This document shows positions 4,864 through 64,000 of a stretch of 64,000 nt of DNA, in pieces. Made by a program: the position numbers and the translations under genes. Each line of letters opens with the position of its first letter. Positions within the stretch are counted from its first letter, which is position 1. The notes under the pieces were generated by a model, which was not told the DNA's origin, made no database searches, and saw only the letters and a program-made list of their open reading frames with translations. Source of the DNA: Malacoraja senta (Eukaryota); contig CM075990.1 of the NCBI GenBank assembly GCA_038087875.1, positions 8,124,001 through 8,188,000 of the forward strand. The letters run 5' to 3'.

Positions 4864-5089
4864 GACAAACACAAAAAGCTGGGGTAACTCAGCAGGTCAG
4901 GCAGCATCTCTGGAGAAAAGGAATAGGTGACATTTCGGGTCAAGACCCGTCTTCGGCCTGAAGAAGAGTCTCGACCAAAATCATCTCTTATTCCTTTTCT
5001 CCAGAGATGCTGTCTGACCCGCTGAGTTACTCCAGCTTTTTGTGTCTATCTCCGGTTTAATCCAGCAACTGCAGTTCCTTCCTACACAT
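4864..5089. mobile_element. Penelope-like (PLE)-derived foldback element with degenerate hammerhead cores
   Basis: Inverted arms acacaaaaagctgg...gcagcatctctggag / ctccagagatgctg...ccagctttttgtgt. Right arm extends to gcagttccttcctacac. Flanked by atctatttata (4853-4863, 5090-5100). Confidence 0.8.
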
Positions 5090-5654
5090 ATCTATTTATA
5101 CCCAGGCCCCACCTGCACCATCACTTATTCTTTGTTCACCTGAAGGCTCAATTTCCTCATTAACGTCGCCACTCTATAGCACGATCTAGTGTCGAACTTT
5201 GGTGCCGTATCTTACATGTACACATCCATTCCTTCACTCCTTCAAAGGCTCTTCAACTGCAAGAGTATCTCTTTTGAAACCTAATTATTGTCAGAAATCC
5301 TCTCCAGGACATTATCTTCTCATTTTCTGAATTCCATGGATTCTGGAACAGTTCCAGCATTTCAATGGTAGCAAATGCATCATTATTGTTGAAAAGAGGA
5401 ATGAGAAAGAAATTAGGAACTAGATATTCTGGCATCTGTTGTCAGGACTTTGTGTACAGAATAAGGTGACGGGGCATTTAGAAGATCATAATTCACAGCA
5501 ACCTTGATATATTAAAGCACGATTGTAGGTTTTTATCATGTCCCAACATGGATATTAGGTAAAGATTAGTTTCACTTATAACAGAGGAAGCTTGTATGAA
5601 AGTTTACCCCTGACTTGTATTGAGATTGTATTATCAGGCAGAACCAATATACCA

Positions 5655-5763
5655 GGGGATACAGACCTAATGCGGGCAGATGGGATTAGCATCGATGGGT
5701 AAAATGGTCAGCATGGATATGATGGGCTGAATGGCCTGTTTCTGTACTGTACAGCTATGACTA
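5655..5763 (+). mobile_element. CR1/HER1 LINE 3' UTR fragment
   Basis: gggctgaatggcctgtttctgtactgta 3' stem-loop region shared with other CR1 ends in the window. Confidence 0.55.
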
Positions 5764-6218
5764 TAAAAATAAATTATCTTTGTAAAATTTAAAGTTTTTA
5801 AGAAACTTGGGTAGATAAAGTGATGTCAGTGGATATAGTGGCTTTTGCTTTTAAACAAGATATCACCTAGAATGTGTTATTCTATCAAAAATATCTGTTT
5901 CCTCTACTTGTTTCCTTTATCTGCGCTGCTGGTTTTGTCTTCAAACAGTCCAATTAAATATGACAAATCTAATTTCTCATAAAAATCTTTCACATAAATG
6001 GATTGGGAATAATGATTTGGGGATTGGGTGGGTTCATTAAAGGATAGGGAACCGAGTAGTAATGATGGTGTTGTACAGATTGACAGTGGAGTGCTACAGT
6101 GATCAGTACTAGTTCCTTTACCATTAACAATGTAAATGAATGATTCAGATGAAAAGATGGACTCTAACCTATGCACGGTTGTTGATAATGTATATAAAGG
6201 TAAGATTGTAGGGAACCA

Positions 6219-6775
6219 GCACAGCGGGGCCACAGCAGAGCTGCTGCCGCACTGCACCAGAGACCTGGGCTTGATACTGACCTCGGATGCTGTCTGTGTG
6301 GAGTTTGCACATTCTCTCTGTGACTGAGTGGGTTTTCTCCGGGTACCCGGTTTTTCCCCGCATTCCAAAGTCGTGCGGGTTTGTAGGTCATGTAGGAAGG
6401 AACTGCAGATGCTGGTTTAAACCGAAGGTGGACACAAAAAGCTGGAGTAACTCAGCGGGTCAGACAGCATCTCTGGAGAAAAGGAACAGGTGAAGATTCG
6501 GGTCGAGACCCTTCTTCAGAAATAGGAGTAATGTAGAAATGTGGGTCTGAAGAAGGGTCTCAACCTGAAACGTCACCTGTTCCTTTTCTCCAGAGATGCT
6601 GCCTGACCCACTGAGTTACTCCAGCTTGTTGTGTCTATCCCAGGTTTGTAGATTTATTGGCTTCTGTAAAATTGCCCCTAGTGTGCAGGATGTAAAACTT
6701 GGATAACATAGAACTAGTTGAACAGCTGATTCATGGTCAGCATGGAATCAGTGGGCCAAAGGTCCTGCTTACATC
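6219..6775 (+). mobile_element. tRNA-derived V-SINE (HE1-like), interrupted by a PLE foldback element
   Basis: tRNA-like head, V-domain tgtgtggagtttgcacattctc...gggttttctccggg, tail resuming at 6643. Confidence 0.8.
6391..6640. mobile_element. PLE-derived foldback element with hammerhead core
   Basis: Inverted arms. Plus-strand core ctgaagaagggtctcaacctgaaacgtc at 6547-6574. Direct repeat ggtttgtag at 6378-6386 and 6643-6651. Confidence 0.85.
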
Positions 6776-6879
6776 TCTGAAGGAGCAGCCGTAGGCTATT
6801 TGATCCTTCAAGCCGGCTTTGATCATGCCCCAACTCCTCTTCTTTGTGAGTTCCTTCCAGCTCTTAATTCTTGATCTTT

Positions 6880-7440
6880 AAAAAATGTAAGAGGATGTGA
6901 GAAAGATGACAAGAGCCTGAAAAAGGATGTAGGCAGGTGGGAAAGGTGCAGCAGATGGTCTTCAGTTTGAAGCATTAACTTATCTATTAGCAATGGAGTA
7001 TATTATTTGAAATGGTGCAAAACACATACATGTTTGTGTGCAGGTGAATCCTGGGGTGCTAGTTTCTGAAATGCTAGAAGCATCACAGATGCAACCGAGC
7101 AAATGAGATAGCAGGTGGTATGTTAGCTTTTTTTACTGATGAAGTTGAGGTGCAGCAAAGCTTTTCCGTATAGACACAAAGGGTTTATTCTGGTCTCAGT
7201 ATTTAAAGGACAGATTACTTGCATTGGGTTGGAGTAGCATTGTTTCACCAGATTGATTCCCGGAATGAGAGTTGTCTTATCAGGAGAGAGTAAGTAAGAT
7301 TGTCTAATAATCACTGGGATTTTGAAGACTGAAATTATGATATTGAAATACGAATGACTGAAAATGATACAAACAGGTTATCTCTATTGGATGAAGAATT
7401 TAGAGCTAGAAGTAGCCTTGGGAAGATAATATTTAGTTCC
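6880..7440 (+). mobile_element. Old, degraded CR1 LINE RT-region fragment
   Basis: Decayed similarity to the CR1 ORF2 C-terminus seen at 43718-44441 (tttcaccagattgattcccggaatgaga; 3' part resumes near 7735-7865). Confidence 0.55.
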
Positions 7441-7511
7441 AAGATGATGAGATAAATCATAACTCATTCATCATTGGCATTCTCTTTCCCAAAGAATCTT
7501 GGATGACCAGT

Positions 7512-7720
7512 TGTGCATGAAGGAACTGCAGATGCTGGTTTACACCGAAGATAGGCACAAAATACTGGAGTAACTCAGCGGGATAGGCAGCATCTCTGGA
7601 TAGAAGGAATGGGTGAAGTTTTGGGTCTGAAGAAGGGTCTCGACCCGAAACGTCACCCATTCCTTCTCTCCAGAGATGCTACCTGTCCCGCTGAGTTACT
7701 CCAGCATTTTGCATCTATCT
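7512..7720. mobile_element. PLE-derived foldback element
   Basis: Long left arm from gaaggaactgcagatgctgg, short right arm, central hammerhead core, degenerate flanking duplication (ttggatgaccagttg / ttggattacctgttg). Confidence 0.85.
7622..7659 (+). ncRNA. Minimal type I hammerhead ribozyme motif
   Basis: UGGGU-CUGAAGA-A-GGGUC-UC-GACCC-GAAA-CG-UC^-ACCCA: complete catalytic core, 5-bp stem II, 5-bp stem I, palindromic ACGU in place of stem III. Confidence 0.75.
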
Positions 7721-9209
7721 TTGGATTACCTGTTGTTGATTTTATTCAAGACTCGAAATTGAAGGATTTTTAGACTGAAGGGGAGTCAAGGATTATGGGG
7801 ATTGGACAGAAACATGAACAGAGTTAAGTACGGGCATGATCTGTTGAATGGCAGAGCAGCCTCATGAGTCATTATGTTCTTTTACTATCTTTTTCTGCCC
7901 TATTCTTGCTCAGAATTTTGTTCTTTAACTCTGATGTCCCAAAATGTATTCCCTGTTCAGCATTGGAGGCAAAGACTTGTTGTTTATGTTGTCAAATCAC
8001 CAAATTTCCAAATTATTTTATTAGTCAGCCTCTTCCTGCTTTGTCTTCAAGGTTATCCTGTAAATGTATTAATTTCAGTCTTTTTCCCCTAGAAACACAA
8101 ATCTGTGCACAGCCCCTGCAAGGTCAATGAAGGCCTTCTGTGTAATATCCGGAACTAACCATAGTGCACAATTAAGTTGTGCCATGTAATTTTGATACTT
8201 TCCCCTTGTCCGGTCAACCATCGCTGATCAGGCAGGCAGTGTCAACCATAATCCTGGCTGAGATTATGTGGCTGCATGTAGCCTGGGATAAAGGATGGAA
8301 TTATTTGCTTTGGGTCTACATTTCCTTTGAGAAATAAGGCAGATAACAAATCTAACCCTATCTCCGAAACCTTTCCTCTATCTCTTGCTTAGTGCCATCT
8401 AGTCTTCCGGTAAACCACTGTGGGATGTTTTGTTTTGTGTAGGGAGGTGTATAAAAGTAAAGTGTTATCGTCAACTATGTTCTAACAATAGATTTCCATT
8501 AAGTGCCTTCAATTCTACCGTACTTTTAATTGTTTATTGGGTTGCGATGATTACCATATTATTTCTATTGCATAATATTGGTTTGGCATAATGGATTCTG
8601 TGGAAGTCAGACAACATTTCTGTGGCATTCTTATTGCATTGTGGATGCTGCATTATTTAATGTCACATTAGAGAAGCCATTAAGCAGCTGTTGAAAGTGA
8701 CTTGCGTTGGTTGCTTGGACATGCCTATACCAGGCAGGCAATCATTAGGCTTTTACATTCAGTGATACTTGTCTTTTTGCAAGGGAAACTGGAGGCGATA
8801 ACCTTAATGTACCTGGCACAGCACAAAGAGAGTGACATTGTCTTCCCACAGAGATAATAGAACCCTGAATAAATCTTTTTTTAAATTCAAATGTACGGTG
8901 CTTTTGGTGTTGTGGAAATTGTTGCTGTCAAATTAAAGTGTAAAGCAAATAATCAGATCGTAAATAGGTGTGTCAGAAAGGAGTATTTCAACCACATTAC
9001 TAAGACTGATTCTCTCCCCAGAATAAGTTAAATGTAACTTGCCCTGTCACTGATACACACCCCTTGACACCTAACACATCTGCCAGTCCCGATCCTGTGA
9101 AATTATTTGGTATTATTGATTCCTTCACCTGAAGTAATACTTTCTCTCTATAAAACCCTTGCCACAATCTTAAATGCTTCCAATCCAATTAGATCATTTC
9201 TTAATTTTA

Positions 9210-9508
9210 ATTTAGATTATAGGTATAGCGTGGGAACAGGCCCTTCAGCCCACTGAGCCTACACCGATCAATGATCACCCGTACATTAGCACTATCCTAC
9301 ATACTAGGGCCAAATTACAATGTTTACCGAAGCAAATTAACCTACAATCCTGTACGTCTTTGAAGTGTGGGAGGAAACCGGAGCACCTGGAGAAAACTGA
9401 TGCAGCCATGGGGAGAGCGTACGAACTCTGTACAGACAGTTGCTGTAGCCAGGATCGAACCGGGGTCTCTGGCACTGTAAGGCAGCAACTCTACAGCTGC
9501 GCCACGGA
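9210..9508 (-). mobile_element. tRNA-derived V-SINE (HE1-like)
   Basis: Reverse complement of the SINE at 38288-38592, with B-box-like ggttcgatcc on the minus strand. Confidence 0.85.
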
Positions 9509-17038: not shown

Positions 17039-17988
17039 CATAGAAACATAGAAACATAGAAAATAGGTGCAGGAGTAGGCCCTTCGGCCCTTCGAGCCTG
17101 CACTGCCATTCAATATGATCATGGCTGATCATCCAACTCAGTATCCTGTACCTGCCTTCTCTCCATACCCCCTGATCCCTTTAGCCACAAGGGCCACATC
17201 TAACTCCATCTTAAATATAGCCAATGAACTGGCCTCAACTACTTTGTGGCAGAGAATTCCACAGATTCACCACTCTCTGTGTGAGAAAAAAAAATCTCAT
17301 CTCAGTCCTAAAAGACTTCCCCCTTATCCTTAAACTGTGACCCCTTGTTCTGGACTTCCCCAACATCGGGAACAATCTTCCTGCATCTAGCCTGTCCAAC
17401 CCTTTAAAATGTTTGTAAGTTTCTATACGATCCCCCCTCAATCTTCTAAATTCTAGCGAGTACAACTGAGTCTATCCAGTCTTTCTTCATATGAAAGTCC
17501 TGCCATCCCAGGAATCAGTCTAGTGAACCTATTCTGTACTCCCTCTATGGCAAGAATGTCTTTCCTCAGATTAGGAGACCAAAACTGTACGCAATACTCC
17601 AGGTGTGGTCTCACCAAGGCCCTGTACAACTGCAGTAGAACCTCCCTGCTCCTATACTCAAATCCTTTTGCTATGAATGCTAACATACCATTCGCTTTCT
17701 TCACTGCCTGCTGCACCTGCATGCCCACTTTCAATGACTGGTGTACCATGACAGCCAGGTCTCATTGCATCTCCCCTTTTCCTAATCGGCCACCATTCAG
17801 ATAATAGTCTACTTTCTTGTTCTTGCCACCAAAGTGGATAACCTCACATTTATCCACATTATACTGCATCTGCCATGCATTTGCCCACTCACCCAAACTA
17901 TCCAAGTCACCTTGCAGCCTCCTAGCATCCTCCTCACAGCTAACACTGCCCCCCAGCTTCGTGTCATCCGCAAACTTGGAGATGTTGC
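17039..17988 (-). mobile_element. CR1/HER1 LINE, 5'-truncated (RT C-terminus plus 3' UTR)
   Basis: Frameshifted peptides ISKFADDTKLGG, LYRALVRPHLEYCVQFWSP, FFLTQRVVNLWNSLP; (CATAGAAA)n tail at 17039-17062. Confidence 0.93.
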
Positions 17989-21095: not shown

Positions 21096-21291
21096 TTGAA
21101 TACATTTCAACCTTGTCCCCTGCCCCTTCCTTATGTATAATTATTTAGTATAAGCACACAACGTTTGGGGATGTTTTTCTATTCCAATTATACTTTAATT
21201 CCTAATATATAAATTAAATTGCAGTATTTGTAACCAATATTTTCAACATCCTTCAGCACCTGGGTTATTTTTGGGGGTTGGGGGAAAGGAA

Positions 21292-21890
21292 AGATACAAA
21301 GTGCTGGTGGCGTAACTCATCAGGTCAGGCAGCATCTCTGGAGAACATGAATAGGTGACAGGCACATAGAGCTGGAATAACTCAGCGGGTCAGGCAGCAT
21401 CTCTGGAGAACATGAATAGGTGTCAGGCACATAGAGCTGGAATAACTCAGCGGGTCAGGCTGCATCTCTGGAGAAAAGGAATAGGTGACGTTTTTGGGTT
21501 GAGACACTTCAGATTCAGAGTCGGGGGAAAGAGAGATATCGACGGTACTGAGGACAAATTAATGGAAGAAAGCAACGATCATCAAGGACCTCTGGAGCCC
21601 ACAATGGTCCATTGTTGGCTGTGGGATAGGTGTTAATAAGTTATACAGACAGTGGTGGGCTCCACATTTCCTTGATTATTGTTACTTTTTGCATATCTTC
21701 CATTCATTTATCCTCAGTACCGTCTATATTTCTCGTTTCCCTCTCCCCTGACTCTCAGTCTGAAGAAGGGTTTCAACCCGAAACGTCACCCATTCCTTTT
21801 CTCCAGAGATGCTGCCTGTCCCGTTGAGTTGCTCCAGCATTTTGTGTCTCCCTTCAGTTTAAACCAGCATTTGCAGTTCCTCCCTACACA
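21292..21890. mobile_element. Long PLE-derived inverted element with internal tandem repeats
   Basis: Left arm with about three 65-bp tandem units. Intact plus-strand core ctgaagaagggtttcaacccgaaacgtc at 21760-21787. Confidence 0.82.
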
Positions 21891-22835
21891 TGAGTAGGTG
21901 ACGTTTTCCATCGGGACCCTTATTATTTGTGGGATCTCATTTGTAACTGAGTGGGTGCAAAGAACTTTGTTCTTGTTAGGATTTTCTTCCCTTGGGGTGA
22001 ATCAAAAAGGATAGGTAATTAAATATTTGATGACCATATGCTTAATAAGCAGAAAGGGGGCAAGCTCTTTATAATGAATCCTACTGTAATCAACTGAATA
22101 ATCCTATATTTGAAACAACTTGCCCAGCTGACATTCGCCCTTTATGTTCATCTTTGCACATTCTCTTTGATATTAAAATTTCTGGACACAATCAAGATTT
22201 TGGAAAATACTTTGCAGAGCAACGAGTGAAATCCAATCAAGATTATTACAGGTTTATGGACAGGGTAGATTAAAGTGTTTTCACACAAAACATTATTAGA
22301 AAATAAGATACATAATCCTGAACATTGATTGATGTCGTCAATTTAAAAGAGATTTAAATGAATGAGTTTCAATGGAAAGGACATTGGGTAAACCATTAAG
22401 ACAATTGGTCCAGATTAGACTCAATCTCAATCCAGAATTTATTTACCACTATGTTAAAACTCAATCAAACTGCCTCCTACATCTCTCTTCATGTGTTCCA
22501 TTAGCAAACGAACTATTATGCTTACATTCCAGGTTATAAATTGAGTTTGCACCCAATACTTGCTCTGGGAGTTAATTCTGTCACCCTTTGCTTGATGAAT
22601 GGTTTTCGATCTACTTTCATGAATGGGTGTTGGTTGATTATTGATGTAAAATTGTATGTTCTTGCTCTCGATGATCCTTCACAGAAAATATTCTCTCAAA
22701 GTATCCTATCAATTCTTCATCAAATCTTAAAACTTTGATCAAAGTCACACTTACATTTTTCAGTGTTCCTAGTAATGCATGATTTAAGTACTCTCCTCTG
22801 ATTTTGTTTTCTTTGGTAGCCGCTTGGGATTCGGC

Positions 22836-23751: not shown

Positions 23752-24062
23752 ACACAGTTGGTGCAATGGGAGAATTGTTGCCTTCCAGCTCCCGAGACCT
23801 GGGTTTGATCCTCACTATGGATGCTGTCTGTATGGACATTTTTACATTCTCCCCATGACTGCGTTGGTTTTCCCAGGGCGCTCCAGTTTCCTCCCACTCT
23901 CCAAAGATGTACAGGTTTGTAGGTTAATTAGCTTCAGTAAAGATTGTAAATTGTTCCTAGTGTGTAGCATTGTGCTTGTGAATGGGCATCGCTGGTCGGT
24001 TTGGACTTGGTGGGACGAAGGGCTTGTTTCCATGCTGTATCACTAAACTAAACTAAACTAAA
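23752..24062 (+). mobile_element. tRNA-derived V-SINE (HE1-like)
   Basis: gggtttgatcc B-box-like motif, V-domain, (CTAAA)n tail. Confidence 0.85.
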
Positions 24063-26490: not shown

Positions 26491-26872
26491 AGCATCAGAC
26501 CAATAAGGATGTTAAAAAAAAGCACATGTATACAAGTGTTGGTGTAACTCAGTGGGTCAGGCAGCATCACCAGAGGTCTTGGATAATTAAATACAGTCTG
26601 AAGAAGGGTCCTGACCTGTCCCTCTGAGTTACTCTGGCATTTATGTGTGATTTCGTTTGGTGAACTAGCATCAGCAGTTCTTTATGTATCCAATATGGAA
26701 ATGACACTTGTTAGGGTTATCTGTTCCCTATAAGGTTATCTCTTGAGTTCAGCATTATTTCACTGAGAGCTATTAACTGTGAATAAAAAATACAAAAATA
26801 AACATAGAATTTTGAACTTCTCCAGAGTTTCTGCTTCTATCTACAGGCCACCGTGTCATCTGGCCGAACCTA

Positions 26873-27470
26873 CCTGATCTCCCGTTTGCTGAACACTTTG
26901 ATTTACCTACCCATTCCCACACTGACCTTGGACTCCTCCATTGTCAGAGTGAGGCTAAATGCAAATTGGAGGAACAGCATTTCATATTTCGCTTGGGCAG
27001 CTGACAGCCCAGTGGTATCAATATTGATTTCTCTAACTTCAAGTAACCCCCGGCATTCCCTCCCTCTCTTTCTATCTCCCCCCCCCCAACTCAAGTTGCA
27101 CCAGCTCGTTTTCACCCAACAAACAGCTAACAATGTTTAAGAAGGAACTGCAGATGCGGGAAAATCTAAGGTAGACAAAAATGCTGGAAAACTGAGCGGG
27201 TGCAGCAGCATCTGTGGAGCGAAGGAAATAGGCAACGTTTTGGGCTGAAACCGTTCTTCAGACAGTGGCCTGTTTCCTTTATCATTGTAACTTTTTTGCA
27301 TTTCTTTCATTCATTGTTCTTTATCTCTCTACATCATCGTCTATATCTCTCAGTTTCCCTTTTCCCTATCTAGTCTGAAGAAGGGTCTCGACCTGAAACG
27401 TCACCCATTCCTTCTCTCCAGAGATGCTGCCTGTCCCGGCTGAGTTACTCCAGCTTTTTGTGTCTATCTA
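26873..27470 (+). mobile_element. Penelope-like element 3' end: GIY-YIG C-terminus, 3' UTR/pLTR and hammerhead, with a nested inverted arm at about 27136-27262
   Basis: 26873-27046 translates PDLPFAEHFDLPTHSHTDLGLLHCQSEAKCKLEEQHFIFRLGS*QPSGINIDFSNFK*. Core ctgaagaagggtctcgacctgaaacgtc at 27375-27402. Confidence 0.85.
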
Positions 27471-40190: not shown

Positions 40191-41721
40191 AAGAAGCTTA
40201 TCGATGCCTGAAGGGGAATGTTAATATTTCAGACGTGGAGGAATAGTCAGGACCATGCTCTGGTGAATGGACACAGCTAGAAGAACAGCCTGCCTTTCAT
40301 TTATTCAGCTGCCTGTGGCTAGAGGTGATTAGCCGCTGATGAATTTCCAGTTACTGACTTATTTACAGTAGGATTTGTTTACTAATGCAAGTCACGAGGA
40401 CTAAATGCGTGGTTGCAATACGAATACTAAATTGGCTTAAAGATGAAAGATGAAACTGCCAATGAATGATAGTTTAAGGCCGGAGGGGAGGATTGGTATT
40501 TGGACCATTTGGCATCATTTCAAGATTTGCTAATGACACAAAATACAAAAAAAGTTACAAGCGGCGAGCAGATATTAATGGACTTTGGGAGGTGAAGTCA
40601 GGCTGGTGATGTGAAGGAGGTGTGTAGAAAGGAACTGCAGATGCTGGTTTATACTGAAAATAGACACAAAGTGCTAGAGTACAAGTAAGAGCTGGAGTAA
40701 GAACATATGAATGAGTGTTTGCAAAGCCGGAGGGATGGATTTGTGGCTATGGTGGAGCCACAGGCAGCAGGTAACTTGTGTCATGTGGAGTAACATGTTT
40801 ACATATTCTCTTGTGCTGCTGCAAGTAAGAATGTAATTGTTCTGTCTGCATGTTATGGCAATAAAACACTCTTGACTCTTGGTTCTGTTGAAGTCTATTA
40901 TGAGGAGTATGAAATGGAGGCCATTCAGCCCATCGGAGTCTTATGGGAGCAATCCCATCCTTCCCATTCCCCCACTCCTTATTTCCTTGTTGTTGTCCAA
41001 CCAGTTCTCTCTCCCACAAAGTTGCCTCTTTTTATCATTTACCTTAACAAGGGATAATTTACAGAGGCCAATTAATTTATCAACATGACTTTGAGATGCG
41101 GGGGGAAAGCGGAGTAGTTTTCGGGTGGGAAGCAGACAGCTTCCAAGGCCAGGATCAAGCCCAAGATCCCTGGAGCTGGGAGACAGCAGTTAACTTCTGC
41201 ATCACCACTCTGCCCTGAATGTCGAGAAGCATGTTAAAAACCACCTATGATCCTTGTTATCGAGGACAAAAATATGGACAATACGCTAAATCGTTGTGCA
41301 CCACTGGTTAGATCTCAGCTGGCTTCGAGCTTTGGAATATTGTCAGCACCTTAACAGGGGAGGGAGAAAAGATTTACTAGTCTGGACTGAGTGATGCGGA
41401 ATTCATTTGTGCATTGCGGTCGGAGAAGCCGTTCTCTTTGCAGTGGGGGCGGTGAAAAGAAATGCTCAGTTGCATTACCTTATTAATAGAATGTAAAAAT
41501 ATCCAGTGGCAGGAGCTTCGATAACCATTCAGTTAATCTAATTAGGAAGAGAAGGGAGATAAGCAGAATATGTTTTCATCTGATGAGTTGTTGTGATCTG
41601 GAATGTGCTGCCTGAAAGGACCTTGGAAGCAAATTAATTTGAAAAGAGAATTGGGTAAATACTCAAAGCGGGAACGTTTTGTGGTGTGCGGGGAATAGGC
41701 AATAGGCACATGAGCATCATA

Positions 41722-41930
41722 TACACAAAAAGCTGGAGTAACTCAGCGGGACAGGCAGCATCTCTGGAGAGAAGGAATGGGTGACGTTTCAGGTCGAGGC
41801 GCCTCTTCAGACTGAACCCGAAACGTCACCCATTCCTTCGCTCCAGAGATGCTGCCTGTCCCGCTGAGTTATTCCAGCTTTCTGTGTCTATCTTCGGTTT
41901 AAACCAGCATCTGCAGTTCCTTCCTACACA
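41722..41930. mobile_element. PLE-derived foldback element with clear target duplication
   Basis: Near-perfect ~70-bp inverted arms, a ~40-nt extension on the right, and cacatgagcatcata at 41707-41721 and 41927-41941. Confidence 0.88.
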
Positions 41931-42359
41931 TGAGCATCATAAATGTGTGAATAAACCAGCAATATGCAAGCCTGGAGAAGTAACCTCTAAACCCTGTACT
42001 GGTAATGACAAATTTAGATAAATACATAGGTTCAAAAAGCAGGTGACAGCAATGGTGAGGGCTATGTCCTCTAGTATATTTAACAACTCCACCCTGGGGG
42101 AAGAAGGCTCTGGCTGTCTCTCCATATCTTTACCTCTCATAATTTTATATATATATCTATCGGACCAAACAAATCCATCTCTCCTTATGGCTAATGGCCT
42201 CTAAGCTGGACAACAAGCTGGTAAATTTCTCCATACCCTCTCCAAAACCACCACGTCCTTCTTAATGTGTGACATCCAGAACTGCATACGCTCAAGCAGC
42301 TACGACCTGCCCTGGGCCAGGACAAATTGTTGGTGATATTTACTGTACATCTAATTCCT

Positions 42360-43660: not shown

Positions 43661-43664
43661 CAGA

Positions 43665-44640
43665 CACAGGGTTGGTTCAGGAATCAGATTGCAGTGGGGA
43701 AAAAGCCATTCTTAAGTACAATGGGATCTGGAGGGTCCTTGTTCATCAGTCTATGAAAGTAAGCATGCAGGTACAGCAGGCAGTGAAGAAAGCGAATGGC
43801 ATGTTGGCCTTTATAACAAGAGGAGTCGAGTATAAGAGCAAAGAGGTCCTTCTGCAGTTGTACAGAGCCCTAGTGAGACCACACCTGGAGTATTGGGTGC
43901 AGTTTTGGTCCCCTAATTTGAGGAAGGATATTCTTGCTATTGAGGGAGTGCAGCATATGTTTACAAGGTTAATTCCCAGGATGGCGGGACTGGCATATGC
44001 TGAGAGAATGGAGCGGCTGGGCTTGTACACTCTGGAGTTTAGAAGGATGAGAGGGAATCTTATTGAAACATATAAGATTGTTAAGGGTTTGGACACGCTA
44101 GAGGCAGGAAACATGTTCCCGATGTTGGGTGAATCCAGAACCAGGGGCCACAGTTTAAGAATAAGCGGTAAGCCATTTAGAACGGAGACGAGGAAACACT
44201 TTTTTTCACAGAGAGTTGTGAGTCTGTGGAATTCTCTGCCTCAGAGGGCGGTGGAGGCCGGTTCTCTGGATGCATTCAAGAGAGAGCTAGATAGGGCTCT
44301 TAAAGATAGCGGAGTCAGGAGATATGGGGAGAAGGCAGGAACGGGGTACTGATTTGGGATGATCAGCCACGATCACATTGAATGGTAGTGCTGGCTCGAA
44401 GGGCCGAATGGCCTGCTCCTGCACCTATTGTCTATTGTCTATTAAGTCTGGACATCCAGTCTTTCAGGCTCCTGTATCTTCTACCAGAAAATAGAAAAGG
44501 GAATGGCAAGAGTGGCAGGTATCCTTGATGATGCTTCCAACCTTCCCATGCAATGCACAGTGTAGATGACCTGGATGGAAGGAAGTATCTTACCCTGGGA
44601 CCAGAGAGGCAGCAAACCATCCTAAAATCTTGCTTGCAGC
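43665..44640 (-). mobile_element. Rex1/Babar remnant split by a CR1 insertion
   Basis: Minus peptide FSGRRYRSLKDWMSRL at 44445-44500 continues at about 43665-43717. Confidence 0.6.
43718..44441 (+). mobile_element. CR1/HER1 LINE, 5'-truncated, open C-terminal frame
   Basis: About 200 open codons (LYRALVRPHLEYWVQFWSP...FFSQRVVSLWNSLPQ); (CTATTGT)n tail; ttaagt at 43712-43717 and 44442-44447. Confidence 0.93.
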
Positions 44641-45774: not shown

Positions 45775-45852
45775 CTCTCAGTCTGAAGAAGGGTTTCAAC
45801 CCGAAACGTCACCTATTCCTTTTTTCCAGAGATGCTGCCTCACCAGTTGAGT
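45775..45852 (+). mobile_element. PLE pLTR fragment with intact hammerhead core, split by a MITE
   Basis: ctgaagaagggtttcaacccgaaacgtc at 45783-45810; arm gagtta|ctcc resumes at 46463. Confidence 0.82.
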
Positions 45853-52989: not shown

Positions 52990-53310
52990 CCAGAGTCAGA
53001 GTGTTACATTGCGGAAACAGGCCTTTCAGAACAACTTGCCCACACCGGCCAACACGTCCCAGCTACACTAGTCCCACCTGCTTGCGTTTGGTCCATATCC
53101 CTCCAAACCTGCCCTATCCATGTACTTGTCTAACTGTTTCTTAAACGTTGGGATAGTCCCTGCCTCAACTACCTCCTCTGGCAGCTCGTTCCAGACACCC
53201 ACCATCCTTTGTGTGAAAAGGTTTCCCCTCAGATTCCTATTAAATCTTTTCCCCTTCACCTTAAACCTATGTCCTCTGGTCCTCGATTCATCTACTCTAG
53301 GCAAGAGACT
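52990..53310 (-). mobile_element. CR1 LINE 3' end
   Basis: Peptide SRTRGHRFKVKGKRFNRNLRGNLFTQRMVGVWNELPEEVVEAG; closely similar to 42560-42925. Confidence 0.9.
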
Positions 53311-54432: not shown

Positions 54433-54673
54433 GAAGATGCTGGAGAATCGAAGGTAGAGAAAATTGCTGGAGAAACTCAGCGGGTGCGGCGTGCCTTCTG
54501 GCTCCTCCTCTTCCTTTCTTCTTCCCCCCCCACCCTGCATCAGTCTGAAGAAGGGTTTTGGCCCAAAACGTTGCCTATTTCCTTCGCTCCATAGATGCTG
54601 CCGCACCCGCTGAGTTTCTCCAGCAATTTTGTGGTCCTTCGATTCTCCAGCATCTGCAGTTCCTTCTTGAACA
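54433..54673. mobile_element. PLE-derived inverted element (second subfamily)
   Basis: Arms agatgctggagaatcgaagg...ctggagaaactcagcgggtgcggc / gccgcacccgctgagtttctccag...ccttcgattctccagcatct; degenerate core at 54545. Confidence 0.82.
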
Positions 54674-55499
54674 TTTTACTCAAGTATGGGATGATCTGCC
54701 GGGATATAAATGCAAAACAAAGGTTTCACTGCATCTTACTACAAATGACAAAAATAGAAGAATAAAAGAATAAAAGGCATACTTGAGTAAAACAGGTTGC
54801 GCAAAAGAGAAAATGACCAGGGTGCAGAATAGAGTGTTACAGCTACAGAGAAAGTGCGGTTAGTAAAAAGTGCAAAGGTTGCTTGGAAGGTGTGGAATAC
54901 ATCGTGAGGAAATGAGTGGTCTGTTCATCACTCCGATACCAGTGGGGATGAAGCGGTTCTTGAATCTGGTGGTGTGTGCCCTTTGCCTGAAAGGAGAGAG
55001 GTGAAGAGAGAAAATGCCCTTCAGAATATATGCTCCGCAGAAAAAACATTTGCAACTTCAGCCGGGAACATTTGAGCAGGGAAGTGTTGTGTGTAAGCGA
55101 TCCATCCTGTTGGTGTTTAGTGAGACACAGCTGAAACGTAGCAGGAGCGCTCGTTAGTGTAATAGCCAATCTTTAGGAAAACTATTTACTGCTATGCATG
55201 GTCACACATTCCCAGACATCCATTGATCAATGCCTCAAAATCCCACTGGGGTGCACTCTCCTAAGGCAAGGCTGGCAGGAGCCTGCTCTGTATGATTAAA
55301 GGTAGAAGTGATTGTACGGTGCTTGTACATTGCTTCTGTTTAACCTTATGAGGAGGAGACCTGCCTACCTGCAGCCAACGGAAAGAAAAACTCCAGCATT
55401 TTGAGTCTATCTTCGGTTTAAACCAGCATCTGCAGTTCCTTCCTACACATTTTGTCTGCTCCACTGCAAAATCTCCTCAAGGTATGTCTACTTTGAAGA

Positions 55500-56218
55500 A
55501 GATAGACACAAAATGCTGGAGTAACTTAGCGAGCCAGGCAGCATCCCTGGAGAGAAGGAATGGGTGACGTTTCGGGTCGAGACCCTTCTTTGAAGAAGTT
55601 CTCCACCTCCGACGAGGGTTCTGCAACACCCTCTCTCACTGCTGATTCATTCATTTGTTCCAAATCTCTCTACATCATCATCTATATATCTCTTGGTTCC
55701 CTTCCCCATGACTTTCAGTCTGAAGAAGGGTCTTTTTTTTTTCTTTTTTTTTTAAAAAATGTTTTTTTTTTTTTTTTTTAATTTGTATTTTATTAGAAGT
55801 ACATTACATTACAACCACATACATTAGTACTTGTCATTTATATCTTCTTACAATTAATGTACTCCATTTATTTTTTACACTAGAAAAGGAAAAGATTGAA
55901 AGAAAGAAGAAAGTGAAGGAAAAAGTAGAAGTGTAGGAAATGTGACAACAAAAAAGGACAAAGACCCTATAAGAGCAAAATTAAAAACAAAAGAAAAAGA
56001 GTTAAGAAATAGACCCTAGGAAAAAAAGAAAGAGAGAAAGAGGAAAAAGAGAGAAACAAATATTTTTATGAGCATTATGCAAAATGGACATACCAACTCT
56101 TCAACTATCATCCCCCCTTACCTGAAGAAGGGTCTTGACTCAAAATGTCACCCATTCCTTCTCTCCGGTGATGCTGCCTGTCCCACTGAGTTACTCCAGT
56201 ATTGTATGTCTATCTTCA
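55500..56218. mobile_element. PLE-derived inverted element disrupted by a poly(A) retro-insertion
   Basis: Left arm 55500-55590, right arm split at the core (55720 and 56122). Confidence 0.8.
55735..56121 (-). mobile_element. Poly(A)-tailed retro-insertion, probably an L1/Tx1 3' UTR
   Basis: Poly-T run on plus strand, minus-strand AATAAA just upstream of the tail, 15-bp duplication ctgaagaagggtctt (55720-55734, 56122-56136). Confidence 0.75.
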
Positions 56219-56949: not shown

Positions 56950-57310
56950 TGATGGGACACTTGATAGAGCTGCTGCCTCACAGTATTGGAGACCAAGATC
57001 TAATCCTGACCTCACCATGCCGTTGGTGTGGAGCTTGCATCTTCTTTCCGTGAACACATGGGTTTCCTCCAGGAGCTCTGGTTTCCTCCCACATCTCAAA
57101 GAGTTGGTGGGTTAATTGGCCACTGTAAATTGCCCTGGTGGATTAGTGAATGGTAGAAACTAAGGCTAGTTGGTGTGAATGTGGGGAAAATTAATAAGAG
57201 GGATTAATGTAGGATTAGTTTACTTTGGTGTTTAGTTTAGCTTCGGGTGATTGAGGGTTGGTGACTCAGTGGGCTGAAGGGCGTGCCCATGATGTATCTC
57301 TCTGTGACTC
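56950..57310 (+). mobile_element. Older V-SINE
   Basis: gctgctgcctcacag head; V-domain gtggagcttgcatcttct...gggtttcctccagg. Confidence 0.7.
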
Positions 57311-57890: not shown

Positions 57891-58730
57891 AAGATAGTCA
57901 CAAAATGCTGGAGTAACTCAGCGAGACAAGCAGCATGCGTGATGTTTTGGCTCGAGACCCTTTTTCAGTCTGAGGGTCAGGGGAGAGGGAGACACAGAGA
58001 TAAGGAAGGGTAAGGTACAAAAATGAGACATCAAAGGGGATGCAGATCAAGGAAAATGTAGAATAGATCATTGTTAGCTAGGAGAAGGTGACAACGAAGT
58101 ATACAGAGATAACATTACCTCGTTACCCACACCAAATCCTGGCACCACATCACCCCAGTTCTCAAAGAACTTCACTGACTTCCCATTTCCCACCGGATCA
58201 CCTACCAAATCCTGGTCCTCACCTACAAAGCCCTCAACAACCTGGCCCCCCCTTATCTCATTGACCTCCTCTCCCCCTACCAACCCTCACGGTCCCTCAG
58301 ATCCACATCAGCTGGTCTCCTCTCCACTCCGAAATCAAACCTCTGCACTTTTGGAGGCAGAGCCTTCTCCAGGGCAGCTCCAAGGCTCTGGAATTCCCTC
58401 CCACAACCGGTCCGAAATTCTGAGTCCCTCACCATCTTCCAGTCCCGCCTCAAGACCCATCTCTTCACCTCTGCATACCCTTAGTCCCATGTTCCCCTCC
58501 CCTCTGTCTTACTGCTCTATTTTGTTTTGTTTATTCCTGACTCTCAATTGTAAAGCGACTTTGAGTCCTGAAAAGCGCTATGTAAATAAAATCTATTATT
58601 ATTATTATTAGCATTAAATCAGGGGGGCAGTCAGACTGGTCGGAAAACTAGGAAGGGGGAGAAATGGAGAGAGAGGGAGAGCAAGGGTTAGTAAAAATTA
58701 GAGAAGTCAATATTCATACTGCTGGGGTGT
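57891..58730 (-). mobile_element. PLE 3' end on the minus strand, interrupted by L2
   Basis: Minus strand at about 58695-58732 encodes LHPSSMNIDFSNF (GIY-YIG terminus); pLTR arm at 57891-57970. Confidence 0.75.
58117..58610 (+). mobile_element. L2-clade LINE 3' end
   Basis: Peptide HITPVLKELH*LPI...YKALNNLAPPYL...RAFSRAAPRLWNSLP...SRLKTHLF; 3' stem-loop agcgactttgag...aaaagcgct; (TAT)n tail. Confidence 0.9.
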
Positions 58731-59348: not shown

Positions 59349-59792
59349 TCATAGAAACATAGAAAATAGGTGCAGGAGTAGGCCATTCGGCCCTTCGAGC
59401 CTGCACCGCCATTCAATATGTCATGGCTGATCATCCAACTCAGTATCCTGTACCTGCCTTCTCTCCATACCCCCTGATCCCTTTAGCCACAAGGGCCACA
59501 TCTAACTCCCTCTTAAATATAGCCAATGAACTGGCCTCAACTACCTTCTGTGGCAGAGAGTTCCAGAGATTCACCACTCTCTGTGTGAAAAATGTTTTTC
59601 TCATCTTGGTCCTAAAGGATTTTCCCTTTATCCTTAAACTGTGACCCCTTGTCCTGGACTTCCCCAACATCTGGAACAATCTTCCTGCATCTAGCCTGTC
59701 CAACCCCTTAAGAATTTTGTAAGTTTCTATAAGATCCCCCCTTAATCTTCTAAATTCTAGCGAGTACAAGCCGAGTCTATCCAGTCTTTCCT
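59349..59792 (-). mobile_element. CR1/HER1 LINE 3' end
   Basis: Peptide EERLDRLGLYSLEFRRLRGDLIETYKILKG...FFTQRVVNLWNSLPQ; catagaaa tail; near-identical to 17039-17490. Confidence 0.92.
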
Positions 59793-59809
59793 CTTCATCG
59801 GACTCACGA

Positions 59810-60068
59810 CAGCACCATGGATGTGCTGAGCTCAGGTGCTGACTGTGTGGAGTTTGCATGCTCTCCCTACGATCACGTGGGTTTCCTCTGGGCGGTCCTG
59901 TTTTGATAGGTTAAATGGCCTCACTCTGTAAGTTGGATCTAGCGTGCAGGTGAGTGGTTAATCTGAGGGGTGTTGATTGGGAATATGGGGTTCGTGTACA
60001 TGGGTGCTCGGTGCTCAGCGTGAACTCATTGAGTTGAAGGCCTTGTATCACCGTTGCATGACTCTATG
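59810..60068 (+). mobile_element. Older V-SINE fragment
   Basis: V-domain tgtgtggagtttgcatgctctccc...gtgggtttcctctggg. Confidence 0.65.
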
Positions 60069-60120: not shown

Positions 60121-60590
60121 CCGGTTACCAAACATTTAAACTCCCTTTCCCATTTCCACACTGACTTTTCTATCTTGGGCCTCCTCCACCGTCAGAGTAA
60201 GGCCACATGCACATTGGAAGATGATCACCTCATATTTCACTTGGGCAGCTTACAACCCAGCGATATGAACATTGATTTCTCTCATTTCAAGTAACCCTAA
60301 CACTCCCTCCCTCCCCTTTCCCCCAACCTGGTCGTCCTACTAGTTCACTGTGCACATCCCTGTATCCCTTCATTATCACCTCTTCCCCCAGCCAACAATG
60401 TACCATTATGGGCCCTACTGTTCCTTGATCATCTGTTGCTGGCCCTGCTTTATTCTGGCCTTTTGTTAACTCCAGTTCCCTCCTCTCTACTTTCAGTCTG
60501 AAGAAGGGTCCCGACCCGAAACGTCACCCATCCTTTTTCTCCATAGATGCTGCCTGACCCACTGAGTTATTCCAGCATTTTGTGTCTAAT
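60121..60590 (+). mobile_element. Penelope-like element 3' end: GIY-YIG C-terminus, 3' UTR/pLTR and hammerhead
   Basis: 60121-60294 translates PVTKHLNSLSHFHTDFSILGLLHRQSKATCTLEDDHLIFHLGSLQPSDMNIDFSHFK*; arm follows the core. Confidence 0.87.
60498..60525 (+). ncRNA. Minimal hammerhead ribozyme core in native pLTR context
   Basis: CUGAAGA-A-GGGUC-CC-GACCC-GAAA-CG-UC; proximal stem I is short (GU/AC). Confidence 0.65.
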
Positions 60591-61248
60591 TCGGGTCACC
60601 TTCACCCTTGTTTGTTCAACTCTGTTAAAAATGTTCTTCCAAATGTTCATGCCATTTCACTCTGCTCTTTAGGATCATACTAGAGGTTATAAGGTCATAA
60701 GTGATGGGAGAAGAATTAGGCCATTCGGCACATCAAGTCTACTCCGCCATTCAATCATGGCTGATCTATCTCTCCCTCCTAACCCCATTCTCTCCATAAC
60801 CTCTGACACCCCATACTAATCAAGAAATCAGAACTATAATAGGAGATTATCGGAGAGATAATCAGAGAGTCTTTACAAGACCCAGACAGATGCCTGTCTT
60901 GTGGGTTCTGCTGTATACATCTCCATGGAGGTGGCTAGTCAGAATGAGATGATGGTTGGGTTTGCTGCATTGACTGGATTCCTGTGTGTTTGGGGAATGA
61001 TCAAGCACATTTGTGGCTCTCAAGGAACCCCCAGAGAAGGCAGGAGTACTTTGTGGTCAGACAGGATCCCAACGTATTAACACAGTCATCCCTCAGAGAG
61101 AGATGTGCGAGATACTAAAGCAGCTGCCATGGTTGTTGACACAAGGAACGGCAGAGGCTGGTTTAGAGCTGGAGTTATTCAGTAGGTCAGGCAGCATCTC
61201 CGGAGAACATGGATGGGTGATGTTTTGGGTCAGGATGACTAAACCAGT

Positions 61249-61625
61249 AGATAGACATAAAATGCTGGAGTTACTCAACGGGACAGGCAGCATCTCTGGA
61301 GAGAAGGAATGGGTGATGTTTCGGGTCGAGACCCCTCTTCAGACTGGTGGCTGTTTAAGGCAGGGATTAGACACATGTTTTTTTTCTCTCATGAGGATTA
61401 TGAGTTTCTGCAAAGGGCTGAGGAAATGGAGTTTTAATATTGTCAAGGCAAAGATAGATATATACCTATTCGACAAACATTGCTGGGAGTGAGGGAATGC
61501 TTAGTTGAGGTCCTAACTATATCAACCATGATCATATTATGGGGCAGAGCAGGCTTGAGGGGCCGAGCGGCCTACTCGTGCTAGTAATTCAATGTTCATA
61601 ACCAGGGGACCTATTTACTTCTGTT
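61249..61625. repeat. Duplicated composite (PLE arm plus old CR1 3' end), copy 1
   Basis: Same junction cttcagactgg..ctgtttaaggcagggat as at 63641-64000. Confidence 0.85.
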
Positions 61626-61857
61626 ATCTGTGATTATAATTCCTGTCATGGCCTCTTCAAACCTTCAAAGGAACGGCTCCCAGCAGGACAGCGCTAAGGA
61701 TGGCTCACAATGCATGTCTAATAGCACAAGGGCTTCTACAGCTGCCACAGTATGTGAATGGAACAAAGGTGTGCAGCGTTATTTATTTAAACGTGCGTTT
61801 TCAACATTAGTCGACTTGCCCAGATTTGGTTTAATTAGATTAACTATGAGAGGTTTA

Positions 61858-62064
61858 TGTGTAGGAAGGAACTGCAGATGCTGCTTTAAACCAAAGATAG
61901 ACACAATAAGCTGGTGTAGCTCAGCGGGTCAGACAGCATCTCTGGAGAAAAGGAATACTATAGGTGATGTTTTGGGAAGAAAGGTCTCGACACGAAACGT
62001 CACCTATTCCTTTTCTCCAGAGATGCAGTCTGACACGCTGAGTTACTCCAGCTTTTTGTGTCTA
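61858..62064. mobile_element. PLE-derived foldback element
   Basis: Long left arm and short right arm; central remnant ggtctcgacacgaaacgtc. Confidence 0.82.
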
Positions 62065-62661
62065 AATATGGGAAGTTCCTGCCTTCCCAGTTGCTCGGGT
62101 GTGGGTGGGAGGTTGGAGGGGTGGGGAGGTTGGGAGGGAGAGGTTGGGGGAGAGGCAGTGGGGGAGTAATTGAGGAAAGCCAAGGTGTGGTTGTGGAGAG
62201 GAGGGGTGGAGTTTGGGGGAGAGAGGGGATGGGAAGGTTTAGGGGGGAGAGGTGGGGGGGGGGGGGATGTTTGGGGAGGGGTGAGAGTTTTGCAGGTTAA
62301 ATAATAAATTTACTGAACCAGCTACCTGAAACCCTGCAGATCAAATAAAAAAAACCAACAGCAGCAGCTCATTTTGGGCATTATGCCTGTACACAAAATG
62401 CTCAGACTGAGAAACTGCATTCCCAGGTTGGGCTGCATCAACTGTTGCTGATATACCTTGTATCAGTGATTAATTATACAGACTGGATGTGGAATGAGAT
62501 AAGCAATGATTTTACTGTCACCCTCAGATGTCTAACATAGTCTTTAAGAGAAAATGCATACAACACCCTTGCTGCTAAAGTAGCATAACAATAACAAACA
62601 AAATGTCATAAATATCTGCTTACGTGGAGTGTAAAAGCTGAACTGAACTGCTCTGGTTGAA

Positions 62662-62805
62662 TGTGTAGGAAGGAACTGCAGGTGCTGGTTTGAACTGAAG
62701 ATAGACACAAAAAGCTGGAGTAACTCAACAGGACGGGCATGTCTCCGGGGAAAAGGAATAGGTGATGTTTCGGGCCGAGACACTTCTTCAGACTGGGAGT
62801 CAGGG
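62662..62805 (-). mobile_element. PLE pLTR fragment
   Basis: tgtgtaggaaggaactgcagg...gatgtttcgggccgagacacttcttcagact; tgaatgt repeated on both flanks. Confidence 0.78.
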
Positions 62806-63020
62806 GCCGTGAATGTTTTGTTTTCACATTTTAATTATCATTAGGTAGAAATTAATATTTGGTCAACAGCGCTAATCACACTATGTTGTGGCAACAGCCT
62901 TGGAAATTCAATACACTTGAAGTCAATCAAGTTTCTCGTTTACCTGTTTGAATTCATTTGTTCTAATTGTACTCAAATGGAAGGTATCACTTGAGGACTC
63001 TCTCTGACGGGAGACTTGGG

Positions 63021-63114
63021 CAGACACAAAATGCTGGAGTAACTCAGCGGTGAGGCGGCATCTCTGGAGAGAAGGAATGGGCGACGTTTCGGGTCGAGAC
63101 CCTTCGTCAGACTG
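63021..63114 (-). mobile_element. PLE pLTR fragment
   Basis: Single short arm; acttggg repeated on both flanks (about 63014-63020 and 63116-63122). Confidence 0.8.
63083..63110 (-). ncRNA. Minimal hammerhead ribozyme core
   Basis: Minus strand reads CUGACGA-A-GGGUC-UC-GACCC-GAAA-CG-UC. Confidence 0.65.
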
Positions 63115-63640
63115 AACTTGGGAGAATCGGGAGCAGGGTTATGTGCTTTGCAAAGAGCGCTATAGAAATCTGTGAATAAATGTTATGAGCCCACCATATC
63201 CTAGTTACCATAGTGACAGTTGCAGCCAAGTGGAGGTTGGGAATTCTGTTTATTTTTGGATTGAATGCATTTCCAGTTGTGGAAAATAGAAAAAACGATG
63301 TTTAAATCTTCAAGGCAGGGTCTTCCTTTGAAGTTCAATGTTTGAACCAGTGGAAGATTGAGGTTAATATGATGTTGGAATTTGATAGATTTTGTAACTG
63401 GGCACTCATTCGATAGAAGAGAGTATCACGAACTTTACCACAAAAAAAATATTATGGCTCAATTTAGGACTACTTGGTCTGATTCTGGTGTTTGAAAGGC
63501 TGTGCTGAAGTGTCTCGTTTGGACAGGAGGCTGCCTGCAAATGTTCATGCAAAAGTAACTCTTAAATTATTTATTCGCTGCTCCCAAAAAAGGTCGTAGG
63601 TGACAGTCATCTCCTTCAGCCTGCATGCAACAATTGGACA

Positions 63641-64000
63641 AGATAGATACAAAATGCTAGAGTAACCCAGCGGGACAGGCGGCATCACTGGAGAGAAGGA
63701 ATGGATGACGTTTCAGGTCGAGGCCATTTCTTCAGACTGGCGACTGTTTAAGGCAGGGATGAGACAAATGTTTTTTTTCTCTCATGGGGAAGTTTCTGCA
63801 AAGGGCTGAGGAAGCTGAGTTTTAATATCATCAAGGCAAAGGAGGATATATATATATTAGACTGGGAGTGAGGGAATACTTAATCGAGGTCCTAACTAAA
63901 TCAACCATGATCTTATTATGGGGCAGATCAGGCTTGAGGGGCCGAGTGGTTACAACTCCTAATTCAAATGTTCATAACCAGACTACCTATTTATTTCTAT
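63641..64000. repeat. Duplicated composite, copy 2 (runs off the window end)
   Basis: Colinear, diverged match to 61249-61625. Confidence 0.85.

Follow-up and report, generated by a model that had tools for sequence, protein, structure and literature searches.

Short inverted repeats crowding a Malacoraja senta locus are, in all likelihood, hammerhead-bearing ends of a Penelope-like element

Introduction

What kind of element has filled a 64,000-nucleotide (nt) stretch of the Malacoraja senta genome (assembly GCA_038087875.1, contig CM075990.1, positions 8,124,001 to 8,188,000 of the forward strand; this whole stretch is the window) with short, often inverted repeats that carry the core of a hammerhead ribozyme? 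The initial annotation took them for a non-autonomous foldback family of ribozyme-bearing retroelements resembling miniature inverted-repeat transposable elements (MITEs). Our analysis indicates that the repeats are almost certainly the pseudo-long terminal repeat (pLTR) ends of a Neptune-type Penelope-like element (PLE). The explanation that best accounts for the whole, to which we give a probability of about 0.6, adds that the short copies likely came from uncleaved RNA that was copied from its tail to its start. Statements about published systems refer to the covered portions of the sources cited.

Results

Arms in the window. Positions within the unit are counted from the C of CUGA (C3 = 0), and on this scale the cleavage site comes after +27. 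An nhmmer profile built from 27 well-preserved units found 65 arms or fragments between 4863 and 63740, and reversed sequence, the control, gave 0 matches. The roughly 40 copies counted initially were thus real repeats but an undercount. The arms correspond to ~53 insertion events and cover 10.9% of the window, and most belong to older subfamilies that are ~5 to 14% diverged at non-CpG sites. Each unit is laid out as CAGU-CUGAAGA-A-GGGU-loop-RCCC-GAAA-CG-UY, followed by ~65 nt and then by an optional further 37 nt. Stem II consists of 4 bp with a 4-nt loop, and not of 5 bp with a 2-nt loop. A structural descriptor for the minimal hammerhead, CUGAnGA-N-stemII(4 bp)-GAAA-CG-UH, matched 8 sites in the window and 0 in 20 shuffled windows. 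An Rfam scan of the window gave no match to a hammerhead family, as expected for a form without stem III; matches to microRNA and plastid families fell below the gathering score and reflect hairpins.

The parent element. The same genome contains an autonomous element that encodes a reverse transcriptase (RT) and a GIY-YIG endonuclease, and its ends are identical to the short units. Searching the genome with the GIY-YIG piece gave 70,606 first-look candidates, and at the fetched loci a core followed the endonuclease end, mostly 150 to 400 nt downstream of GIY-YIG, with RT motifs upstream. The RT search found ~100 places that all shared the same score, with open frames of up to 1,302 amino acids. 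Ten loci from that search had the form core-open reading frame (ORF)-core or were 5′ truncated, and stood in partial tandems or inverted pairs; pLTRs that arise from partial tandems, together with an inverted 5′-truncated copy, are the arrangement characteristic of PLEs. The intact element reads pLTR, ORF (RT, CxxxxCxxC linker, GIY-YIG), pLTR, and ORFs of 1,212 to 1,290 amino acids opening with ATG were present at loci L045 to L049 and L051. Pfam placed RVT_1 at amino acids 722 to 891 (E value 7e-6, below the gathering score) and GIY-YIG at amino acids 1142 to 1175 (above gathering as an isolated domain). The L046 translation contains CNRKRCNTC, PADKGG, and CIRC..H..H, matching the CX2-5CxxC linker, DKG, and CCHH motifs that define the Neptune and Nematis clades (PMC8557442). 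Over their last 2,100 nt the 10 ORFs differ by only 0.37%, and the subfamily therefore appears to be very recent and is probably active.

The closest named protein relatives are from Chiloscyllium (69%), Rhincodon (68%), Hypanus (66%), and Mobula (73% over half of the query), annotated as uncharacterized or misnamed. One stingray protein, named divergent protein kinase domain 1C isoform X2 (P0105), aligns with the PLE RT region at 66% identity, covering 62% of the query, a match that probably reflects gene-model contamination or exonization. A Protein Data Bank sequence search with the RT-endonuclease region returned nothing significant, and Pfam gave no GIY-YIG match on endonuclease remnants of 231 and 63 amino acids. 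The N-terminal half of the ORF (L046 4,900-5,400, amino acids ~330 to 450) holds proline-rich repeats of 26 amino acids, and variation in their number accounts for the range of ORF lengths. The ORF ATG lies in a splice-donor-like AAG|GTATG context (L046 4026-4035; window 55480-55489), and no spliced joint was found among the contig joints listed. About 2 kb from a PLE remnant, L032 930-2300 (minus strand) contains an open frame of 456 amino acids, which we take to resemble the first exon of a LEM-domain gene.

Direct tandem repeats that each carry a type I hammerhead, the hallmark of retrozymes, are not the form taken by the window units (3 close tandem neighbors versus 12 head-to-head pairs); that form was seen only at L193 (G000:C1:28,901,800-28,905,500, with the array running on to ~28,906,900), where at least 13 direct units of 384 bp follow one another. 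Each unit joins 3′ untranslated region (UTR), core, tail, and ORF start, and the full-length units compared were identical. Judged from its sequence, this is a retrozyme-like array, putatively born from a young PLE by microhomology deletion of the ORF and a candidate natural substrate for dimer cleavage. A 219-bp spacing was noted at G000:C2:79,144,989-79,145,458.

Conservation and folding of the hammerhead core. As had been proposed, the core has the sequence of the minimal type I hammerhead found in PLE pseudo-LTRs; the descriptor matches and the linked RT and GIY-YIG ORF both bear this out. Across 7 subfamily consensuses, 0/11 catalytic positions and 0/4 of the positions from -4 to -1 were variable, compared with 23/26 columns in the leader, 3/4 in loop II, and 10/19 in the linker. 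The invariant block begins exactly at -4. This pattern points to selection in the master elements. N7 and the bulge were likewise invariant in these consensuses, which the ribozyme alone would not demand. Inserted copies kept non-CpG catalytic bases at 94.6%, conserved tail bases at 93.5%, and G12 at ~70%; with catalytic bases retained at a tail-like rate, the inserted copies appear to decay neutrally, with no selection on the ribozyme. Among 244 arms, the catalytic base G12 survived in 121/180, the palindrome C in 137/186, and the palindrome G in 128/188, losses that indicate CpG decay and show that variation is not confined to N7 and the stem II loop as first described.

Helix I had only 2 contiguous pairs followed by two mismatches in 4 of the 5 copies examined, rather than 4 to 5 bp, and the 5 pairs at 7627 are due to the private junction of that copy. 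Stem II, whose covariation had been suggested as a check, showed no real covariation: the only change was a one-sided U-A to U.G, and there were 1 to 3 double changes per pair among ~160 arms. In the young-subfamily core, the loop is UUCG, closed by a U.G pair, and the cleavage site reads GUU. Folding predicted competing structures, including in the young subfamily a 6-bp hairpin over GAAA, and a near-zero probability for the active hammerhead fold in monomers. We infer that only master elements keep the hammerhead intact and that, as a monomer, it would be misfolded and inactive. A foldback contains one sense and one antisense core in a long duplex and therefore cannot form a hammerhead dimer; a dimer could arise only from direct tandems such as the 384-bp array.

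A recurrent 5′ boundary. The end map of older arms comprised 199 of the 244 arms, after the 45 scoring under 60 were dropped. More than half (108/199) begin at -12 to +9, a rate of 3.8 to 5.8 per nt, versus 0.15 to 0.44 per nt further upstream. Five begin at +25 to +31 (0.7 per nt), so no peak occurs at the cleavage site, and the upstream flanks of these arms are unrelated to one another. The window gave a similar picture, with 29/56 well-aligned arms starting at -12 to +11 and 7 carrying at least 50 nt of upstream 3′ UTR; the claim that every arm begins at CTGA had to be abandoned. Among the youngest copies, 48% of 7,010 end within 12 nt upstream of CUGA, and 3,668 still match at -12. In these exact young cores the match was lost at -1 in 441, at -2 in 979 (the mode), at -3 in 588, and at -4 in 428 (a number inflated by a T-to-C variant), which together make 2,436, or 35%. 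The 5′ ends do not form a smooth truncation series.

A hand tally of the first 100 matches listed per position revealed an extra G before the start in 44/100 at -2 (30 expected, p 0.002) and in 39/100 at -3 (27 expected, p 0.008). Measured against the autonomous master, short and long young copies were equally little diverged (0.34% versus 0.37%). Contigs from other organisms, assembled from four runs that we guess to be RNA and by nature mute on starts, ends, strand, and expression, had loose ends at -3 (runs X1 and X15) and at both tail sites. Depth in these contigs fell 40-fold upstream of the core, a drop to which leader divergence may contribute.

3′ ends, target duplications, and foldback pairs. 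The 3′ ends were read from 97 young copies out of 100 listed matches of the young 46-mer. Among the matches listed, 60 end at +90 to +95 and 24 at +126 to +132, which gives two alternative ends at +92 or +129; the 37 nt between them constitute the PLE "tail," an optional extension of 30 to 40 bp. Apparent starts at -33 to -45 and at -75 were artifacts of indels relative to the reference, and the copies concerned were scored as long. Target site duplications (TSDs) of at least 7 bp (7 to 16 bp) flanked 18/29 solo short young copies, versus 0.9% of 812 mismatched pairs. Such variable-length duplications, as well as the RT linkage, sustain the earlier view that no DNA transposon is involved.

The inverted pairing reported earlier was confirmed. 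The window contains 12 head-to-head pairs no more than 60 nt apart and 3 close tandem neighbors, and in the window plus 20 arbitrary stretches 24/36 close pairs were head to head (4.0 expected), six times chance. All junctions of head-to-head pairs differ, one arm alone bears a tail in 39/50 pairs (49% expected, p 2e-5), and pair partners share subfamily sites (0.18 versus 0.41 mismatch). Each head-to-head pair is thus one insertion, with a junction of its own and, as a rule, a single tail. This indicates that foldbacks formed anew at each insertion and do not descend from a master element; the foldback is not, as had been supposed, the element itself. Rotifer PLEs likewise have inverted pLTRs, one-sided tails, and TSDs of 8 to 10 bp (PMC3846280).

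Genome-wide scale. Exact-count searches of the 1.94-Gb assembly found 18,728 copies of the old 28-nt core, 7,088 of the young 46-mer, and 58,086 of a degenerate intact core, with 0 in reversed controls. Density was estimated from 38 ten-kilobase stretches at chosen round coordinates (33 from large contigs and 5 unplaced), which are not a formal random sample. These 380 kb held 165 arms (4.4% of the sequence), 14 endonuclease ends, 3 RT cores, and 0 ORF N termini, and extrapolate to ~0.84 million arms genome-wide (bootstrap 0.61 to 1.09 million). The exact cores and the estimated arms amply justify describing the family as massively amplified. The proposed spacing of about one copy per 1.5 kb does not carry over to the genome as a whole: with 65 arms in 64 kb, against 165 in the sampled 380 kb, the window has ~2.3 times the average density. 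Published counts of hammerhead motifs, ~4,000 in coelacanth and 9,000 in Xenopus, were obtained with another descriptor and are only roughly comparable (PMC4209133). PLE expansion has been described in whale shark introns (10.1101/443036).

How the short copies arose

In the mechanism that we favor, the endonuclease of the element would nick the target, and the RT would start inside the RNA at either tail site (+92 or +129), by analogy with an anole PLE in vitro; internal RT initiation and an uncleaved template have been shown for Anolis PAc (PMC11167929). The RT would then run to the RNA 5′ end, predicted to be the initiator-like TCAGTCT of an internal promoter, and a second priming round would produce the inverted arm. 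Hammerhead-cut RNA would rarely serve as a template, and inserted copies would subsequently decay neutrally. We lean, if only slightly, toward the run-off step itself, in which the RT would reach the 5′ end of an uncleaved RNA that begins at the conserved initiator-like CAGU. The initiator consensus is YYANWYY, which the invariant TCAGTCT fits, and ACGT lies at +27 to +30 from the A at -3. A copied cap leaves an extra G before the start, as with L1, and the G excess would follow from run-off in the same way. A stem I of only 2 bp would also be explained, since the RNA would begin at TCAGTCT. The D. virilis Penelope has an internal TATA-less promoter whose downstream element, RGACGTGY, contains ACGT (PMC2377424).

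Several points weigh against this account. None of the 7 ORF-bearing copies that keep the 5′ UTR start at -2 to -4; their starts are at or beyond -268, -28, -69, -1503, and +72, one is long with an indel artifact, and one is the tandem reference. Strand transfer between terminal repeats, or a separate short RNA, is therefore needed. The 5′ ends are spread over -8 to +11 and not placed at one base, and the G excess is modest and could be produced by microhomology or an A-to-G change. The young set was anchored at +8 to +53 and is therefore blind to a cleavage-site peak, so that the older arms alone carry that point. Finally, the Neptune-type assignment was made from motifs, not from a tree, and leaves Neptune and Nematis as a pair.

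A related possibility, which we hold to be doubtful, is that the short units form a non-autonomous family akin to short interspersed elements (SINEs), with an internal promoter and transcription of their own, mobilized in trans by the PLE protein. It is compatible with run-off and differs in the locus that makes the RNA. In the 380 kb, 165 arms stand against 14 endonuclease remnants and 3 RT cores, an excess that would suit it, as would the failure of full-length copies to begin at -3. Two recurrent variants are confined to the short young copies (N7 A-to-G twice and catalytic G8-to-C twice, with 0 in 56 long copies), and the sufficiency of pLTRs in trans has been inferred in rotifers (PMC3846280). 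Against it, short and long young copies lie at near-equal distances from the autonomous master, no short-only subfamily was resolved, the recurrent variants number just 2 versus 0 each, and the private junctions mean that foldbacks are not masters. ARAGORN found no tRNA head for the unit in the window. The initial classification as a non-autonomous PLE family thus stands as to PLE, but the units have no sequence separate from the ends of the autonomous element; secondary trans-mobilization of some short copies may occur. In its most developed form, which is equally speculative, the 95- to 130-nt unit would be the Alu-scale, polymerase II-type SINE equivalent of a PLE in sharks and rays, having its own initiator, the ACGU palindrome as downstream promoter element, and re-transcribed solo copies that are retroposed in trans without self-cleavage, and being still on the move at several hundred thousand copies.

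Somewhat less probable still is that the same PLE is at work and the 5′ pile-up is a structural stop, at which newly started RT would stall or release on leaving a predicted closed -3 to +130 domain whose two ends pair, no transcription start being involved. In the minimum free energy fold of the young -3 to +130 RNA, the 5′ GU.UGAAGAAGG pairs with the tail's CCUUCUUUA.AC. Full-length copies pass the boundary without stopping (0/7), as expected if only early cDNA is fragile, and the spread of 5′ ends over ~15 nt also fits such a stop. Yet copies from +92, which have no pairing partner, stop at the same place (28/41 short young copies are tailless), the folds of old subfamilies differ and show the same pile-up, and the G excess is left unexplained.

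That the boundary is a 3′ splice site, at which spliced host transcripts would exonize the pLTR, is very unlikely. A pyrimidine tract makes up the leader and closes with CAG one base ahead of the core (CAG|U), exons ending in G or AG would look like starts at -2 and -3, and an intron of the D. virilis Penelope ends at helix I (PMC4209133). Nevertheless, the left TSD lies within 0 to 8 nt of the start in 18/29 solo copies, which leaves no room for an upstream exon, and no GT..AG joint to this site was present among the 15 joints listed out of 114.

That the repeats are MITEs or foldback DNA transposons mobilized by a DDE transposase, for instance that of the Tc1-like element at 1786-3412, can be virtually dismissed: inverted arms and an intact Tc1-like transposase ORF in the window speak for it, but symmetric terminal inverted repeats (TIRs) and a fixed TSD matching the transposase were not found, the arms being unequal (one tail), the copies mostly solo, the TSDs 7 to 16 bp versus a fixed TA, the unit profile without a match in the Tc1 element, and the unit itself continuous with an RT ORF. 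The units share with MITEs their short length, lack of coding capacity, inverted arms, and high copy number, and differ in their asymmetric termini, lack of a fixed TSD, and linkage to RT.

Features of the window

All seven cores named at the outset passed the descriptor. On the plus strand, the core at 6547..6574 (G.U at 10.1-11.1) lies in the plus arm of a foldback at 6391-6647, and that at 7627..7654, an exact old-subfamily sequence, in the plus arm of a foldback at 7502-7728 with a tail on the minus arm only. The core at 21760..21787 (plus) belongs to an arm at 21708-21901 that has a 3′ UTR leader and a tail, with its inverted partner at 21426-21546. Overlapping that partner, at 21286-21534, is a 65-bp tandem of the post-cleavage part of the unit in 2.7 copies, whose two extra units begin near +25 to +27, close to the cleavage site. 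The core at 27375..27402 (plus, G.U at 10.1-11.1) follows a PLE GIY-YIG C-terminal remnant with one stop at 26852..27040 (plus), which matched the intact ORF by tblastn at 54.5% identity (E value 2e-14), and then 3′ UTR. A short arm of the younger, UUCG-loop type at 27125..27265 (minus) is nested in the 3′ UTR of this older copy and is not a true foldback partner. The core at 45783..45810 (plus) is in a solo arm beginning ~8 nt upstream. A second GIY-YIG-linked copy has its C-terminal remnant at 60121..60288 (plus; tblastn 53.6% identity, E value 2e-11), ~210 nt upstream of the core at 60498..60525 (plus). On the minus strand are the seventh core, at 63083..63110 (N7 = C), and the remaining descriptor match, at 61315..61342, whose ACGU palindrome was lost by CpG decay.

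Two foldbacks illustrate the head-to-head arrangement. That at 4853..5100 has arms at 4863-4964 (minus) and 4952-5095 (plus), a tail on the plus arm only, and an 11-bp direct repeat, read by eye, at 4853-4863 and 5090-5100. That at 41707..41941 has arms at 41720-41815 (minus) and 41812-41939 (plus), again with a tail on the plus arm only; a 15-bp direct repeat at 41707-41721 and 41927-41941, also read by eye, brackets it and partly overlaps the tail end. A younger-type arm with leader and tail occupies 54503..54686 (plus). At 55389..55625 (plus), a pLTR tail continues into an old-subfamily ORF start (ATG at 55484), interrupted by a short arm at 55498-55590 (minus) with a 10-bp direct repeat at 55492-55501 and 55589-55598. 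The arms at 61136-61620 and 63640-64000 (minus) have ~370 bp in common at 82%, including an upstream leader unlike the usual 3′ UTR, reflecting either a local duplication or a chimeric subfamily.

The Tc1-like DNA transposon at 1786-3412 has 218-nt TIRs that are 98% complementary and an open transposase frame of 343 amino acids (2009-3040, minus) with Pfam matches to HTH_Tnp_Tc3_2, HTH_SB, and DDE_3; it looks intact and recent. Other dispersed fragments lie at 17245-17760, 39856-40159, 42576-42978, 43645-44412, 52998-53297, and 59435-59910, and at 30093-30629 and 58179-58484. We presume these to be 3′ ends of CR1-type and L2-type long interspersed elements (LINEs); Pfam gave no significant match for the two tested. 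A second dispersed family, at 6287-6372, 9299-9505, 23822-23986, 35883-36072, 38290-38463, and 57017-57102, in which ARAGORN found no tRNA gene, is presumably a V-SINE-type element.

Discussion

Earlier publications already describe PLE pLTRs that carry hammerheads, as well as dispersed solo motifs, inverted pLTRs, and tails. Like the endonuclease-bearing (EN+) Neptune and Nematis PLEs (PMC8557442), the element described here has a single ORF with RT plus GIY-YIG at its C terminus, the DKG motif, a CX2-5CxxC linker, and CCHH, as well as partial tandem pLTRs, an inverted 5′-truncated copy, a 30- to 40-bp tail at one end, and a pLTR hammerhead. It differs from them in its ORF of 1,212 to 1,290 amino acids with a variable proline-rich insert, in showing no microsatellite targeting in the flanks viewed, and in its ~10^6 arms, mostly in the form of a discrete pLTR-only unit. 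With the minimal hammerheads of metazoan PLEs (Cervera and De la Pena 2014, PMC4209133), it shares the type I core, the extra base between A9 and 10.1, the G10.1-C11.1 pair, a palindromic 15.2-16.2 without loop 3, and a predominance of single dispersed motifs with some close opposite-strand pairs. Helix II and proximal helix I are 4 and 2 bp here, compared with 7 to 8 and 4 to 5 bp in the consensus of that study and 2 bp in D. virilis; its covered text and supplement name no chondrichthyan.

The Anolis Poseidon element PAc (Frangieh et al. 2024, PMC11167929) resembles this PLE in having two internal RT start sites that define the tail, an uncleaved RNA template (which we infer here), and no ends at the cleavage site. 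PAc belongs to the Poseidon clade and its hammerhead overlaps the ORF start, whereas the ribozyme here lies ~160 nt before the ATG; the covered sections of that paper do not report genomic copies that share a fixed 5′ boundary. Non-LTR retrozymes (Li, Clavereau, Pollet 2026, 10.64898/2026.07.22.740005) are likewise derived from PLE pLTRs, bear hammerheads, and occur in one chondrichthyan. They are direct tandem repeats, a form that the 384-bp array of this PLE at G000:C1:28.90 Mb resembles, while the window units are dispersed solos and head-to-head pairs. The literature covered, including PMC6155905, contains no account of this PLE family, its scale, or its fixed 5′ boundary; Repbase, Dfam, and some supplements lie outside that coverage and may hold the family.

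PLE replication and the role of the hammerhead are open questions, and in the only in vitro system RT initiation is internal and the ribozyme can be dispensed with. This genome offers a matching fossil record, in which thousands of near-identical copies record the two RT start sites together with a sharp cDNA end before an uncut ribozyme, and its intact, very recent vertebrate masters are assayable. With 58,086 exact cores and pLTR arms making up ~4% of the genome, the ribozyme-motif load would rank among the densest described. The many 100-bp hairpins likely yield double-stranded RNA in host transcripts. For annotation, such repeats should be filed as PLE ends and not as MITEs or unknown SINEs.

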